DNA from: Folioceros fuciformis
Lineage: Eukaryota
Length of the DNA: 56,804 nucleotides
Assembly (NCBI GenBank): GCA_049999805.1
Contig: JBNGIO010006230.1
Coordinates: 129,494 to 186,297 of the forward strand
Reading direction: 5' to 3'
Under the pieces are notes generated by a model. That model had not been told where the DNA came from. It worked only from the letters and a program-made list of their open reading frames with translations, and did no database searches. Positions 35,648 to 44,290 of the stretch are shown piece after piece; the first letter of the stretch is position 1; each line of letters begins with the position of its first letter. The position numbers were made by a program, and so were the translations under genes.

Positions 35648-38600
35648 CTAGTGATCCAGTGAAACTTGCCGCATTTTACACACAAGGCGGACCGTTGGCA
35701 TGTCCAGCTGGGCTCCACCATCCTGCTTCACCAGCTCAAGCAGCTTCGACCTGGGGAGGCTGACGCAGGCTTGGAACGTGGCCAGGACCGCCGGGGTGGC
35801 CATGGAGAGAGCTGATAAGACGTTGCACAGGTATTCGATGTCCGCCGACAGCTGCTGAGCTCCCTGATCGCTCAGCGACTGAATGCCTCGGATCTGCTCG
35901 ATATACAGAGCTGTTGCGCCTTCGGCAACCTGCAAGAGAAGGGAATATACATCGAGTGTAAGGAGACTGGTGAGACCTTACCAAAGGATGTTCTGAGAGG
36001 AGAACAGTACCTTGAACATCCATTCCGTCGCGAAATACTGTGCTTCCTCTGAATGATATTCCCCCGTTTCTGATGCACCTCCAGTCGCACCTCCTCCCAA
36101 AGGTTCCAATTGCTGGGGCAGAGTGAACAAGTACTCACCGATGCTGGTGACATAGGGTAAAGGGTAGGCGCTGAAAGAAGGAAGCTCAAAGTCGTTGGCC
36201 TCCTCCTCAGCACTCCAGACAGCCAGGCGGGCCACGTCAGCCAGCTTCAACCGTACCTTGGATATGAGCACCTCATACACAAGATCGTTCACGGCTTCTG
36301 AGAACGCTGCGACTCGTTGAGATGTGTGAGGCAGGGCATGGAAACGTGGGTCCTTGGTCTGCATGACATCAAGCAAAGCGTTTGAGACAGACTGGGGAAA
36401 AGCATGATAGATACACGACCCCAACTGCCAGCGGTTACACCTACCTGCTCGAAAAGGCTGGCGAGACGCCTAGCCTTTTCAGGAGCATCAAAAAGTCTCA
36501 AGATGGCCATGTCTAGGGTCCATGCAGGTCCGAATTCCTCCGTTGCAGGCCCTGTGAGGGCTGACGCTGAGCTCAACAAACCAGACGCCAGAGCCTGAGT
36601 AAGTTGCAAGCGAGTACCCAATCTGACTAGTGTTGCTCGGAGTGACACTTCAAATACTGACGACCGTCCACTCAAACTGTCTGCAACAGTCAGCAATTGC
36701 AGGGCTCCTTGGACAACCGACCATTCCTCCTCCTCCGGAACCAACTCCGCTGCACTTAATGCATTTAAACCCGACCCACTGTCTCTCCTCCCAAAACCGA
36801 CCTCAGAAGCCTGTCCATCTGGTGCAGATTTATCCACTCCACAAACTTGGCGTAGTGAATTAAGGATTTCGACCAAGGATGCAAGGTAATGAAGCATCAC
36901 TTCATCAAGAGCGTGTACAAGAGCTTCTGCTTCGGAGCCTCCTGTGAAGCTAGTGCAACGCTCAACTGCTCCTTCCAATGCCAAAGTAACTGCTGGGATA
37001 GACGCCTCCATGCGTCGAACAGTCTCACTTAATTCTACTCCACGTGCACCCACGCCACCAGGTACAGGTCCCCGCAGATCCAATGCTGTTACCTCAGCGA
37101 TCAGCTCACTTTGTTCCAGTTCGCCGTACCTGAAATATTCCCACAAGAGCTAAAAGCTGAAAATAACAGAATTGATTACTTGCAGAAATACTCGAGAAAC
37201 AAAAAGCAAAACGGCTGACCTTTGCTTGTATGTCTCAAATGGTGAATAAACAGCTCTCAAGACACGAGCAACCTCCATGATATCAACAGCGGAGAACAAG
37301 TGCTGCACGTTCCTTGCAAATGCTCCAGTCATGCTGTGAAGTGCTAGAAGTATGCCCATCTTTGTGCCGCGCCCCTTGTCGCCTCCGCTCTCTGGCATAC
37401 CTCAGACTTAAGGCGATGCTACAAAGTCCAAAGTTCCCAGTAACATGACAAAGCAGAAAAGTGGCAAGCACAGCACAGACACCGGTTGTCACCTGAGGCA
37501 GAACCTTTGGCCCCCACTATTGCCTCTTCTGTGGCAGCGTCAACACGTGCAGTGAAGCTAGCAGAAATGGCTGACATTGTTTCAATCAGCACCTTAGGAA
37601 CAAGGGAGTTGTAGTCTTCAGCAAATGCCACTTGGCACCTAACACGACGTGAGTGAGGAGGCGGTGAACATAAATCCAATGCTGAAGAGTAATGTCGCAG
37701 TCGAGTCACTGACAACCCCTGACAAGGTTCCTGGACATGCCACTCACCACTTGTATTCCTGCTCAAGCTGAAGGAGGACCTCGTCATAGAATCTGGGCAA
37801 CCAATCTGAGAAGGAAGCCGCTGAAGCTCCATTGGCAACCGCAATTGCTGGCTGGTGTCGATCACTAGATTGCTTCTCGTTATGCGCCGGTTTGCCAGCA
37901 GCAATGGCCCCCTTCCCTGACTCAAACTCCTCCCACAAACGCCGGAGAGGCCGCACACGGACACGCGTGTAGTGCTGCTCCAAAGATCCATATCTGCCAA
38001 TGGTGATAAGGATATCCCGCAACCCCTGAGTGCTCTCAACCTGCAAAACACACAATGAGGACAAAGGAAATTGCAATGCCCAAAGAATCCCTGTCCTTCC
38101 ATCCATCAAATCACAAACGATCACCTTGCGCTGAGACAGGGCATCGGACAACCGTGGCTGGACCATTCCTTCCAGCCGATCCTCGAGAACTTCAAGCTGC
38201 CTTTTCACGTTGGCAAATTCCGGCACCTGGAAACCCCCGTCACTGCTCAGATACCGTTTGATCTGTACCCAGAAGTGCACAAAGATTGCAATCGCCTGTT
38301 AAGCCAAGGCCATCACCTCTCCCACTACTGCCAAGCACCGTCTCATGTTCGCTAGGGTTTCCGCAGCCCGGGGAAGGTCACCACTCGCGAACACATTCTC
38401 CACGCTCGCACTGAGTTGAGCCAAACCTGCAGCATCCTGCAGACGACTCAGACCAGTGAACCTCGCACCTGCAACCGCGCAACTACCCTACCGATCGCCA
38501 GAAACGATTCACTCAACCTGCAAAGTCTCGTGCGCAGCCTCCATTCTCTGCTTCACTTTGTCCACCCGCGCCAGCGCTGCCACGGACTCCGCAGACATGC

Positions 38601-38970
38601 GCCCCACCTACACACAATCTCCTGTCATCAATGAGCTACCTCCATCCCCACACACGCAGGCCCCTCCCACACCCCCATCACTTCCCACCTGCTCCAGCTT
38701 CAGCGAGATCCCAGACACAGTCGACCGCAAGCCGAGCGCATCGTCCCGCAACCGCACCACGTCCCGAAGAGCCCGCGGCGTCCGCAGCAGCGCAGCCACG
38801 CTCTGCTCCTCCAGGGCCCCTGCGATGTCCTCCGCCATCAACTGCAGCTTCATCTCCACATCCGCCAGGTACCGTTCGATACTGTCGTCCGCCCGCCGCT
38901 GCTTGCACACATCGTTCACCCACGCCTTGGCCTGGAAGGACTCTTCCGCGAACGCACCCAGATCCACCAT
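35648..38970 (-). CDS. COG7: Conserved oligomeric Golgi complex subunit 7
   Basis: MVDLGAFAEESFQAKAWVN...LADVEMKLQL, LEVLEDRLEGMVQPRL, WLPRFYDEVL, YVTSIGEYLFTLPQQLE, QQLSADIEYLCNVLSAL. Confidence 0.9.
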
Positions 38971-39166
38971 CGCGGTTGCAGCTCCCGCGAGCCCTGGATC
39001 TGTCACGTTGCTGGGAACCCGTTCTCACAACACCGCTACCCAGCGACCGTAGAACTAACTCACGTAACCAGATGGGGCGAGACGAAACGAGACGAAACGC
39101 TTACAGCGAGGACAAAAACGCTGGAAATGCAAATCGTTCGCAAGCACAGCGCGGAGATCCACGGCG

Positions 39167-40702
39167 ATGCAGCTGAACCTGCAGTGCCGGACTCCTTTGC
39201 AAGCCGCGCTCGCCAATGACAGCCCCAGCCCATGGCCGGATAGGCCGATGGCTTCCCGGGATTTCGCGCAGGGAGCTACGCGGAGGGAGCAGGAGGAGCT
39301 TCTGTGGCAGCACCTCTGCTCCAATCCGGGGGACTGGTGGGACAACAGGGGGGACAAGCGAAGCTCTCGGCATCCCAACTTCAGGCACAAGACGTCCAAG
39401 GGGCCGCTGTGGGTGGACAGCTACAACAAGCCGAGCTGGGTGGATTCACAGCTGGCCCGGACGGATTGGGCTGGGGAGGCCTGAGGGGAGGATGTAGAGC
39501 TGGGGGATGCTGTGGAGGCCTTGGATGACTTGTGCTAGTGTGGGGGCGCTGGAGGATGGGAGGGAGGTTCATTTGAGATTAGGGGAATGGGTTAGAAGGG
39601 GATGCTTTGTTGGTTACGAGTTTGGTGCACATGTATCCGAAATGTGGGAGGCTGGAGGATGCAAGGAGAGTGTTGGACAGTTTGCCCAGGAGGGAGGTGG
39701 TGGCATGGAATGCGATGATAACTGGCATACGCAGCAAGGGCGTGGGCGGGAAGCCCTGTGGTTGTATGGCAGGATGAGGAACGAGGTGGGTATGCCTTCT
39801 GCCAATCACGTAACCTTTTCGTGCCTCTTGCAAGCTTGTCACAGTGTTGGGGCATTGCAACAGGGGAAGGAAATCCATTTGGAAATTATGGATCGAGGGC
39901 TTGTGAGGGTAATGCGCTTATTGGCAGCTGCCTGGCGGAGATGTATTCCAAATGTGGGAGTCTGGAGGACGCTCGCAGGGTGGTCAACTCATGGCCTGCA
40001 AGGAATCTGGTGACATGGACAGCGATGCGCAAGGGCTATGCCGAGCACTGTGATGGGCACATGGCGATCCGGTGCTTCCAAGACATGCTGCAAGACGGTG
40101 TTGAGCCGGACGAGACGACCTTCACATGTCTCATGGTGGCGTGTAGCCATGCGGGCCTGGCGCGTGAGGGTCAGATGTATTTCAGGATGATGGTGGAGGA
40201 GTATGGGATCGTGCCTTCCGACTACCACCATAGTTGCATGGTGGATCTTCTTGGCCGGTCAGGACAACTGGAAGCCAGCGCACAGGAAGGAAAACCTGAG
40301 ACAGTCAGCAGGTGCTGCGGAGAAGGCCGCAGAGGCATGCATCGAAGTGAAAAACGAGGTGCACAGTAGGAGAGGAGAGGTCCGACTTCGGCTCAAAGCT
40401 GAAGAGCGTGAACACGAAGTTAAAGGAGGAAGGTGGGTCTATCCCTCCAACTCAGTTGGTGGTGAAACCAATATTCGAGCAAGAGAAAGAGGATATGTTG
40501 TCTGGTCTTGCTGAGAAACTGGCCTTGGCATATCGATTTTTGAACATTCCAGAAGGTACTACTTTGTTGGAGGGAAAGAATGTGCGGATGTGCAATGATT
40601 TGTCACAGCAGCACGACTGAGAATTGAGAGGTCATTGTTAGGGATGTTTCCAGATTACATCAGTTTGAGGAAGGTTTTCTTTCATGTGGTGAGTGCCATT
40701 GA
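39167..40702 (+). pseudogene. Decayed PLS-class PPR gene with an N-terminal OSB-type PDF motif and a C-terminal DYW:KP-type deaminase-like domain
   Basis: WWDNRGDKRSSRHPNFRHKTSKGPLWV motif. P/L/S repeats lie in shifting frames (VTFSCLLQAC, MYSKCGSLEDARRV, ACSHAGL, HSCMVDLLGRSG), followed by KAAEACIEV, LAEKLALAY, KNVRMCND and VIVRD..LHQF..GFLSCGECH*. Several stops and frameshifts; E region largely deleted. Confidence 0.85.
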
Positions 40703-40946
40703 CAAAGATCAGTTTGCGGAAGGCTTTTGTTCATGTGGTGAATGCCATTGACAAGTAGGCTGAGGAAATACAAAAGTTTTTGATGTTTTTGCACAATCAA
40801 AAAGCAATGTCGAGCAACAACATGTACAGGTTGGGACTATGAATGTGTAAGATACAGTAGGACAGGGCTACGGATCTTTGGTCTATGAAAGACCACACTG
40901 TTCAGAACAGAACTACTCTTGCTGGATAATGTACACAAGGCTGGAT

Positions 40947-41749
40947 CTAGGAGGAGTGTAGGAAGCCGAGGAGAGGGCCGTGCAACAGAAATTGCTCGGT
41001 GACGATGAGTGACACGAATCCGATCATGGCTGCCCTGCCGTTCCATCTCTCAGCCTTGGCGTTGAATGGGCCTGCGGCTCGGCTGTCGGGGGACTCCCCA
41101 CTGCCGAAGATGGGAATGAAAGACGCCCACACCACAATGGGGGCAGCTGCCAGGAACCAAAGCAGGCCGTTGCTCTCCGTCACCTGCTGCACCACGCTCT
41201 GGCCCGTGAGAAGCTCGGCAATGAAGGCCCAGGTGATGCCCAGCATGGAGAGGCGAGAGTTGATGGTCTCAGGGGCCGGTCCGTCGAACTTCATCACGCT
41301 CTCCACGGACGTGTTCCCCAGCTCCGGCCTCCTCTCGCTCTCGGGCCGGAAGAACTGGGCCGCGGGGGAGCCGTCGAACACCCGCAACGGCTCCTGCCCC
41401 TCGTTCTTCTTCACGTCCTGCTCGGTGATATCCACCTTCGTCTGCGGCTGCATGCACAAGCAGCAGCAGCAGGAACGGGAACAAGCGGAATCAGAATTGG
41501 AGCAAAGCCAGCTAGAATTGCAAGCTGCAACGTTAATCAGGGCTCTTTCTCCACGATCCTCCACGATCCTCCACGCACCAGAGGGGTGTCCTTATCCTGC
41601 TGCTGCACTGCACGGATAGCCAGGCCTCTCCTGGACGGCAGGCCCAGGTTCAGTCTCTGCCCGGCCCCTGCACGGAGATCTGCTGGCGACCCGCGGATAG
41701 CTGCGAGTGGTGACCTTGTGAGGCTGGAAGTTTGCACCATGGTTGCCAT
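40947..41749 (-). CDS. ELIP: Early light-induced protein (ELIP; LHC-like, three helices), 2 exons
   Basis: Transit peptide, then FDGPAPETINSRLSMLG and AERWNGRAAMIGF chlorophyll-binding helices; a GT-AG intron joins DTPL|PQTK. Confidence 0.85.
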
Positions 41750-41914
41750 TTTGGCGATGGAGTCCTCGAATGTGAGCGTGCAACGATCACGCAGCGAGAC
41801 AGGTGATGAGCCACAGAGCTGCAGCCTGGAGTGCTCGCTGGATGATCGATGCTCCAGGAGTAGAAATGGTGCAGTGGAAGCCGTGGGTCGGAGAGGGAAG
41901 AACAGGCACCGTTC

Positions 41915-41982
41915 TTCTATACAGCTGGAGGGAGGGAGAAGAGAGTGCCAATTGGCCATGGTCTATGCCCGTGCCACGTGCC
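41915..41982 (-). promoter_or_regulatory. Putative ELIP promoter elements: G-box/ABRE (GCCACGTGCC, core 41975-41980) and TATA-like TATAGAA (~41915-41921)
   Basis: The motifs lie 170-230 nt upstream of the ELIP ATG in a plausible order; G-box control of ELIPs is established in angiosperms. Confidence 0.45.
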
Positions 41983-43362
41983 TTTCCTGCAGTGCGGGCA
42001 TCCAGCATGTGAATTGACTTGGTCCAGATGTGTCCGCGCGGAGGAACGGGTGATAAATTGTACTCATCAGCGGCAGGTAATCAGGCACAGACGTTGCGCA
42101 GGCTGAGAGGCTGATCCCCCACATCGTTGCCACGAAGCCTTACACTTGGGGAGCTCACACTCCACCACGGCCTTGGCCAAAGGGCCTGACACGAAGCCGT
42201 TTTCCCCCTTGGAGGCTCTGAAAGCTGATGTGACAGAGGTTCATTGGCTGTGGTACCGTCGAAGAATGCGGGACCTCTAATCTGATTCCCGATGACAAAG
42301 AAGGCAAGGGTGCACCCAGCCCTGGTGCTTGCTTGTTCACAAGCATTCCCGGCTCACAAGAGATCCTCAAAGTTGCGCAAGTCATTGGTGACAGGCCAGA
42401 GAGTGAGCCAAATGGATTGCGCTTCTTCATGTCTCGCCTCGCCTCCAAGCTAGCACGAACATGTGCCGTACCAGTGCCAGGAAGGATGCTGCTGGCTGAA
42501 CACAGACGTGCAAGACCACAGACCTAGAAAATGTCGAGCTCATCCCTAGTAGCTTAGTGCTCGTACAACAACTGCCCCGAGGCAGAGGCCCACAAAAGCA
42601 TTTGATATGGGCTCCTCAACACACCTGGCCCAGCACATGTACAGCCATAGCTTCTTTCACTATTCGGGATCACAAGAGGTACCCACCACTCAGAAGAGCA
42701 TACTGGTGCTCCTGAGCCGACAGCGTTCCACATCCTGTCGGCTTCCCAGAAGGTTAATCGCCTGTTATAACACATGTGAGCAGGCGAGCACAAGCACATT
42801 TTAATTCAGGTCCTTGTGGCTGGCTGATCACACCCTTCATGTTGTTCCTCTGCTATGCGCCTTCATACAAATCATGAGCCTTCAATGTCTGATACGAGTG
42901 GGATTTCCACACAATCTACACTTTCTTTCTTCACGGTTTCCGCTTCGTGCTTCAGTGCTCACCATCGTGCTGCCTCGTGCAGGTGGGACCATGTGCATGT
43001 TTATAGCCCTTCCACCTCTTGTACACTACATTATAAGTCCACCACTGCCCTTTATCCTCATCGGATGAGGACCTCATCCTATGAAGGAAACAAGAGTTAA
43101 GGGAGCTCAAGCATTCTTCTCAACACCGCCAGCCACCATCTCTCCCTCTCTTTCATAGTTCCTCACTCATGAAAACATATGATCACAAGTGCATTATGGG
43201 CTCCAAGGTTCATCCTACCACAATAAGGTGTCATTCTAACCTCCCTACAATCATTGGCAACCAGAAGAGGAAAAAGCGATTGCAACACCATGTGACAACA
43301 CCTTACACTTTCCATAACATCTCATCACAACCCCTTCGTTTGTTGGCAACAAAGAAGAAGAA

Positions 43363-44290
43363 AGCTGGTGCAAGCACATATGACTCATGTCACTGAAGAA
43401 AGTTGGTGCAAGCACATATGACATATGACTCCTGGCACTGAACAAAGCCCCGGTGCAAGCACATGACATATGACTCCTGGCACTGAACAAAGCCCCGGTG
43501 CAAGCACATGACTCCTGTCACTTTTACAACAAGCACATGACTCCTGTCACATTTACAACTCATTCTGTATTGGTTCCTTGTAACAACTGGCTCTATGACA
43601 ATGTTCACTTTTATGACACTCTCTCGTTATTAGTTGTTTGGTTACAGCTTGGCTCCATGACAATGTTCAATTCACTTTATTACTGCTTACAGCTGGGCTT
43701 TTAAGCAACGGTCACTTTTACGATGCTTTCTCTTTATTGGGGCTTTATGGCAACGTTCACTTTTAGGATGCTCTCTCTTTATTGGGGCTTTATGGCAACG
43801 GTCACTTTTACGATGCTCTCTCTTTATTGGTTGCTCGTTACAGCTGGGCTCCAAGGCAATGTTCAATTCACTTTATTGTTTCACTTGTACCACAAACTCT
43901 TTATTGGTTGCTCATTACAGCTGGGCTCCAAGGCAACGTTCAATTCACTTTATTGTTTCACTTGTACCACACTCTCTCTTTATTGGTTGCTCGTTACAGC
44001 TGGGCTCCAAGGCAACGTTCAATTCACTTTATTGTTGCTTACAGCTTGGCTCCATGGCAATGTTCAATTCACTTTATGCTTCCAGTTGGCCTCTATGGCA
44101 AAGTTCACTTTTATGACACTCTCTCTTTATTGGTTGATTACAACTGTGCATGGCAGCATTCACTTTGATGACAATCTCTCTTTATTGGTTGCTCAATATA
44201 GCTAAGGTGCATGACAGCAATAAGTTCTACAATATACTCCCTTTTCATTGGTTGCAGGTTCCATGGCAGCATTGGCTTTTATGACTTTTT
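43363..44290. repeat. Complex AT-rich minisatellite array with two repeat families
   Basis: ggtgcaagcacatgac(tcct) units at ~43363-43560; ttcacttt..ctctctctttattggttgctcgttacagctgggctccaaggcaacgttcaa units at ~43590-44290. Confidence 0.85.

Follow-up and report, generated by a model that had tools for sequence, protein, structure and literature searches.

The DNA analysed here, which we call the window, is a stretch of 56,804 nucleotides from Folioceros fuciformis, and the locus of interest occupies its positions 39167-40754 (+) between two genes on the opposite strand (Table 1). To one side lies a divergently oriented COG7 gene (PF10191) at 35000-39066 (-), in which a spliced RNA contig (6088 nt) confirms nine short introns, each 81-109 nt long, and to the other lies an ELIP-like gene. 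Against database proteins, a COG7 exon of 227 aa reaches at most 60% identity, and a lycophyte, a conifer, a moss and a liverwort score much the same (54-59%). This points to a land plant with no near named relative in the protein database, which is compatible with a hornwort without showing it to be one. Given the 101 nt between the 5' end of COG7 and the ATG at the front of the locus, COG7 and the first open reading frame (ORF) of the locus may share a bidirectional promoter. The locus itself is made up of this ORF of 105 aa with one PDF motif, an in-frame stop, and the remains of a PPR array and of a DYW deaminase domain, all in one orientation. Judged by its sequence, the locus is a pseudogene. 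With the ORF and five intact relatives as tblastn queries, no further PDF or PPR locus turned up in the window.

An open frame of 105 codons is unremarkable per se, since ORFs of 100-200 aa are common on both strands of this GC-rich stretch. A tandem-repeat block at 43376-44107 (periods of 45, 29 and 77 nt, with 83-96% matches) also yields long spurious ORFs on both strands.

Table 1. Features of the PDF-PPR locus and of its two neighbours, in window coordinates.
Feature	Position	Strand	Remarks
First exon of divergent COG7 gene	38684-39066	-	RNA contig end at 39066, 101 nt from the ATG of the ORF
105-aa ORF, short leader and one PDF motif	39167-39484	+	ATG to TGA; 584 database matches at E ≤ 1e-3
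PDF motif proper, 62 aa (ORF residues 39-100)	39281-39466	+	14 columns invariant in 12-sequence alignment
In-frame TGA separating the PDF part from the remainder of the former gene	39482-39484	+	Spanned by contig of the RNA run, 0 differences
Same-frame continuation GEDVELGDAVEALDDLC (17 codons), then TAG	39485-39538	+	By-eye likeness to first PPR-like helix
Remnant of PLS-type PPR array	39528-40288	+	Readable only with frame switches
PPR block, frame 3	39528 to about 39590	+	
PPR block, frame 1	39583-39753	+	
PPR block, frame 3	39738-39902	+	
PPR block, frame 2, final PPR motifs	39905-40288	+	47% identity to P0150 residues 621-736
Remnant of DYW deaminase domain, split between frame 1 (40384-40617) and frame 2 (40577-40693)	40384-40693	+	PF14432 at 5e-11
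Last codons and stop of the former gene, present twice in tandem (period 49 nt, 89% alike)	40659-40754	+	
ELIP-like chlorophyll a/b-binding gene (PF00504, 2.5e-10)	40761-42383	-	Intron 41448-41578 confirmed by RNA contig joint

The ORF at the front of the locus carries an OSB-type PDF motif

The 105-aa ORF was found exactly where a sequence-only reading of this DNA had placed it, with the residues quoted there, and its motif turned out to be the one that had been named, the PDF motif of OSB proteins. A phmmer search of 1.84 billion representative sequences puts the motif far beyond chance, with 584 matches at E ≤ 1e-3, of which 133 pass a threshold of 1e-10 and 13 one of 1e-30. The matches map to about residues 40-100 of the ORF. 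The typical matched protein is 300-500 aa long and has 2-4 copies of the motif close to its C-terminus. A search with a profile built on 12 PDF motifs brought up proteins called OSB1, OSB2 and OSB3 in their source records, and we therefore equate the motif in the window with the PDF motif of OSB proteins. For the small ORF as such, the protein database held no close ortholog (best identity 58%), and Pfam had no family at E ≤ 1. A word-index search of the ORF against longer proteins, which returned 125 candidates with none at E ≤ 1e-3, was superseded by the exhaustive phmmer search.

In an alignment with 510 other PDF domains, the window copy keeps 16 strongly conserved positions (W10, P17, W20, W21, D22, R24, K27, P33, F35, H37, K38, L44, W45, P52, W54 and V55 of the profile). 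It departs from the others at two sites. The D of the P-D-F triad is N in the window copy; the residue is D in 97% of the 86 PPR-linked domains and in 95% of the 424 other domains (a class that includes fragments, possibly of PDF-PPR proteins that were cut), and it is N in 1% and 0% of them, respectively. The second site is usually F and is C in the window copy, as in 0 of the 510 other domains. Both changes, D to N and F to C, suggest that constraint on the motif has relaxed.

Within the leader of the ORF, the segment at 39221-39283 (+), …SPSPW..PDRPMASR.DFAQGATR, shows a weak likeness to the core of PDF motifs in Diphasiastrum proteins, without significance (E 4-5 in a set of 268 proteins). 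The segment could be what is left of another PDF copy ahead of the present one; two or three copies are present in many intact relatives.

An AlphaFold2 model of the motif, based on the 12-sequence alignment, is a small alpha/beta unit predicted with confidence (mean pLDDT 89.1), in which two helices (residues 2-14 and 53-61) enclose short strands at 19-21 and 34-36. Foldseek gave 0 matches of this model to the PDB at E ≤ 0.001 (best 3.7), and VIA-align against 48,161 chains gave 0 at Z ≥ 5, the best reaching Z 3.3 with an rmsd of 3.1 over 55 residues. The PDF profile matched only chlorophyll-binding proteins among PDB sequences (E 0.5-0.85), and the best score in the ESM Atlas, 0.83 to phage clusters, is at chance level. 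In the two structure searches the modelled PDF motif thus has no clear solved structural relative, which is not proof of a new fold.

A decayed PPR-DYW gene follows in the same orientation

The claim that the motif stands before the remnant of a PLS-PPR/DYW gene was borne out by Pfam, which recognised PPR_2 (PF13041, 2.8e-12), PPR (PF01535, 4.1e-12) and DYW_deaminase (PF14432) behind it on the plus strand. The PPR and DYW pieces are scattered across the three forward frames. The remnant has no single uninterrupted reading frame, as the reading changes frame six times or more and meets several stops; the frame changes are located inside PPR motifs.

The extent of the loss can be read from P0150 (KAJ7558666.1 of Diphasiastrum complanatum), a protein of 957 aa with complete PDF, PLS, E, E+ and DYW parts. 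Of the about 1450 nt that encode its residues 137-620, the window retains the equivalent of only 450 nt, and for residues 737-848 (336 nt, covering E1, E2, E+ and the beginning of DYW) it has 119 nt. By this measure the PPR array has lost about 1 kb, and with most of E1/E2 absent as well the deficit comes to some 1.2 kb; the E1/E2 motifs expected between array and deaminase have no counterpart in the window. Compared with P0150, the deaminase remnant has L at the H of H-S-E and L at the second C of C-G-D-C. We take the H-x-E and C-x-x-C residues of a DYW deaminase to be its zinc site, two residues of which are thus replaced in the remnant. The DYW domain owes its name to its C-terminal tripeptide; both tandem copies at the end of the locus close on …SCGECH-stop and not on that tripeptide.

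At the junction of the two parts, the wording GDAVEALD after the in-frame stop had been read as the start of the PPR array. This part of the reading stood by eye, as the wording looks like the PPR-like helix that comes first in intact relatives (P0053, P0090, P0138, P0081 and P0268 were compared), but it did not gain statistical support. BLASTP alignments with intact relatives end where the PDF motif ends and do not bridge the PDF-PPR junction, and continuity across it therefore rests on position, frame and the by-eye motif. As to position, the PDF motif ends at 39466 and the first PPR-like wording begins at 39485-39528, within a few tens of codons.

An RNA run reproduces the lesions

Two sequencing runs were compared with the locus, the DNA run X1, which is the probable source run of the window, and the run X2, which comes from another study and year. 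No listed run, X2 included, is recorded as RNA. However, X2 contigs skip nine CT..AC introns (81-109 nt) of the minus-strand COG7 gene and one intron of the ELIP-like gene, whereas X1 skips none of these, and X2 is therefore RNA. One X2 contig covers 39113-39545 (433 nt, depth 7.1) and another 39593-40696 (1104 nt, depth 7.8), both with 0 differences and 0 gaps, and across these two intervals the X2 contigs have no well-supported joints. Over these intervals X2 is unspliced and agrees with the window at every letter, which rules out assembly errors as the source of the stop and the frame changes and shows that splicing does not remove them. Small-side joints and loose ends within 39391-40363 were left unused as evidence, as they come from pieces of paralogous PPR genes that are 90-95% alike.

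The 105-aa ORF lies wholly within the 433-nt contig. In X2 the depth over the pseudogene is about 7, against 97.5 for COG7 and 50.9 for the ELIP-like gene, the contigs being unstranded and giving no ends or level. The RNA cover at the locus is probably due to low-level or read-through transcription. It could represent the pseudogene's own transcript, begun near the divergent COG7 start, or equally read-through from the ELIP-like gene, which could explain the cover because this gene converges on the pseudogene.

One X1 DNA contig of 854 nt matches the PDF core at 39335-39395 with 6 differences in 61 nt. Because of this resemblance the genome would have a paralogous PDF motif elsewhere, and the contig is the single hint of a paralog in Folioceros fuciformis.

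Intact PDF-PPR proteins occur in a lycophyte and in ferns

The sequence-only reading had proposed that the ancestral gene encoded one PDF-PLS-DYW protein, and a database protein search supports this with intact relatives that have the same order and strand. ORFs that combine intact PDF and PPR parts were found in Diphasiastrum complanatum, Ceratopteris richardii (KAH7415344.1, P0081), Adiantum capillus-veneris (KAI5076972.1, P0092) and transcripts of Pteridium aquilinum (the transcript-contig ORFs P0170 and P0077), with further members from other assemblies (P0002, P0053, P0090 and P0268). Diphasiastrum complanatum has 37 such clusters plus P0113 and P0150, equal to at least 37 locus tags, and six of the clusters include DYW. 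The source annotations call the intact proteins only hypothetical, uncharacterised or PPR proteins. Since the Pteridium ORFs come from transcript contigs and P0002 is a 1371-aa product on a single 4755-nt contig, the fusion of PDF and PPR is not merely an artefact of genome annotation.

Among the best 150 of the 584 representatives matched by the ORF, 11 were PPR-positive, and the PDF motif was on the N-terminal side in all of them (11/11). Pfam analysis of ten hand-picked long hits gave PPR families in 8/10, the remaining two being a kinesin and an SSB-domain protein. The PDF profile matched 726 proteins at E ≤ 1e-5; among the best 120 of these, 42 were PPR-positive, each with one to three N-terminal PDF copies, and 5 of the 42 had DYW. 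In P0184, one of the 42, two additional PDF copies lie internally, which suggests that two gene models were run together. P0135, with 153 aa, exemplifies the fragments that could derive from PDF-PPR proteins, since its cluster mate P0268 is a PPR protein of 692 aa. In the fern PDF-PPR proteins P0002, P0170, P0081, P0092 and P0138, acidic insertions interrupt the PPR arrays at regular places. The fern proteins end after the E motif without DYW, unlike the DYW members of Diphasiastrum.

By similarity, the PDF motif in the window sides with the PPR-linked domains. The seven most similar of the 510 PDF domains are all PPR-linked (54-59% identity), although the margin is small, as the best OSB-type domain has 54% identity to the window motif against 59% for the best PPR-linked one. 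In a FastTree tree of 511 domains, the five rows nearest to the window by path are PPR-linked, and the PPR label changes 7 times on the tree as against about 80 times when shuffled; the tree contains no well-supported clade that includes the window motif.

Interpretation of the locus

We consider it likely that the locus is the wreck of one nuclear PLS-class PPR-DYW editing-factor gene with an N-terminal OSB-type PDF motif, that is, a member of the PDF-PPR family that died here. The ancestral gene would have been one nuclear gene, and its product an organellar RNA-editing factor of the PLS-class PPR-DYW type headed by the PDF motif. Proteins of the parent family begin with one, two or three PDF motifs, which precede a PLS array and a terminal E or E+DYW part; the family is intact and numerous in the lycophyte and present in ferns. 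The copy in Folioceros fuciformis is dead by virtue of the in-frame stop about seven codons past the motif, the frame changes, the deletions and the zinc-site replacements, while its first 105 codons would be open by survival rather than by demonstrable selection. In the intact family, we infer by analogy with OSB1 that the PDF motif would serve as an extra binder of single-stranded nucleic acid, independent of sequence, beside the sequence-specific PPR tract. The bound strand might be RNA or, in line with the tethering to nucleoids that the sequence-only reading suggested, displaced DNA at nucleoids.

Three other explanations were weighed against this one. The 105-aa ORF might be a working small gene of the PDF motif alone that was kept after the PPR-DYW part decayed, which we regard as unlikely. 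The ORF is intact next to a remainder with at least six frame changes, and a frameshift-free PDF part beside these downstream changes could hint at selection on the ORF. At the downstream density, however, about 1.8 frame-breaking events are expected in 318 nt, and as the chance of seeing none is roughly 0.17 by this estimate, their absence is unremarkable and not significant. Likewise, the sixteen strongly conserved positions are retained and the model has a pLDDT of 89, but the triad D, found in 97%/95% of domains elsewhere, has become N, and C occupies a position that is never C in the 510 domains. The ORF lies fully inside the 433-nt contig of the RNA run and starts 101 nt from the end of the divergent COG7 transcript, which would permit a shared promoter; against this, the RNA depth of 7 falls far short of that over COG7 (97) and the ELIP-like gene (51), and the unstranded cover may be ELIP-like read-through. 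The database does contain short PDF-only predictions of 102-165 aa, yet many of its short entries are fragments, and it holds no close ortholog of the ORF, 58% being the best identity.

It is still more doubtful that the PDF piece broke away from an OSB-type gene and came to lie, by chance, beside an unrelated PPR-DYW pseudogene. Single OSB-type PDF domains do reach 54% identity, near the 59% of the best PPR-linked domain, and the OSB protein P0093 aligns across the entire ORF, leader included, at 44%. But the leader alone has no significant match to OSB or PDF proteins (best E 3.1 among 268 proteins), the window holds no OB-fold remnant, the seven most similar domains are PPR-linked, and the orientation, order, spacing and frame of the parts agree with the architecture of intact PDF-PPR proteins. 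That the gene is intact, its breaks being introns or assembly errors, we hold to be scarcely credible: nothing beyond the general possibility speaks for it, while the independent run X2 matches the window at 39113-39545 and 39593-40696 without a single difference or gap although the neighbouring genes are spliced, the frame changes fall within PPR motifs, some 1.2 kb is missing and catalytic residues are replaced. Thus the dead member of a PDF-PPR family is the explanation that we prefer.

A bolder version, in our view rather improbable as a whole, would make the PDF-PPR proteins an overlooked large subfamily of editing factors in seed-free land plants. Their PDF motif would clamp single-stranded RNA, or a displaced DNA strand at nucleoids under transcription, non-specifically and so couple editing to transcription, and the member in the window would be reduced to a transcribed, stand-alone PDF mini-protein that keeps its single-strand binding.

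As for novelty, a literature search, with a scope that left aside PPR-evolution papers in subscription journals, found no description of PDF motifs on PPR proteins, and neither "PPR" nor "pentatricopeptide" occurs in the main text of a 2026 paper that traces how OSB genes, 182 in all, evolved across 59 species (PMC13393729). The PDF-PPR architecture, numerous in seed-free plants, is apparently undescribed. It would place a second nucleic-acid-binding module on dozens of PPR proteins in a lycophyte and in ferns, and it presents the PDF motif as a mobile module that reaches beyond OSB proteins. If the motif aids target binding or the placement of the factor, it bears on editing in plants with very many sites and could become a new part for engineered PPR editors. 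The copy in the window, an ordinary pseudogene, is of value mainly as a pointer to the PDF-PPR family.

Comparison with OSB proteins and PPR editing factors

OSB proteins guard organellar DNA against illegitimate recombination, and to our knowledge the PDF module has been studied so far only in them. PPR tracts bind single-stranded RNA; PPR editing factors usually consist of a PPR tract plus E/DYW, and accessory domains are rare. The PDF motif of OSB proteins is described as a unit of ~50 aa named for a conserved Pro-Asp-Phe, and that of AtOSB1 is reported to suffice alone for binding of ssDNA (PMC6963530). In the OSB layout given by the same source and by the 2026 study, the motif is C-terminal to an OB-fold-like domain (PMC6963530, PMC13393729).

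A PDF motif of roughly 60 aa is common to the OSB family and the locus in the window. In the window, however, the motif is N-terminal, lacks an OB-fold, has PPR repeats behind it and carries N in place of the triad D. No OB-fold remnant was found there: tblastn with 11 OSB proteins gave nothing outside the PDF motif at E < 0.09, except for one match of P0169 that is driven by composition and crosses a COG7 exon. There is also no room for an upstream OB-fold, since the COG7 transcript starts 101 nt 5' of the ATG. The leader of the ORF was considered as the end of an OB-fold from its place in the full-length alignment with P0093, and this candidate was dropped, the leader alone being without a significant match.

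PDF motifs turn up in several other settings. Among the database proteins P0043, P0001, P0176 and P0185, they are present in a 1526-aa kinesin of Coptis chinensis, and a 1160-aa protein of Kingdonia uniflora has 13 stretches that match the motif. They also occur in proteins of Chlamydomonas incerta and Edaphochlamys debaryana; C. reinhardtii is stated to lack OSB genes in the 2026 study (PMC13393729).

With PLS-class PPR-DYW editing factors, the locus shares the customary order of parts, PPR repeats worded as in other PLS arrays followed by a DYW domain. It differs from them by the extra N-terminal PDF motif ahead of the array, and in that the gene is broken, E1/E2 are mostly gone and two zinc-site residues are replaced. 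The intact PDF-PPR proteins are uninterrupted and often have two or three PDF copies, whereas the window has one clear copy in a pseudogene; in the order and strand of their parts they are the same as the locus, and their PDF motifs are 43-59% identical to its own.
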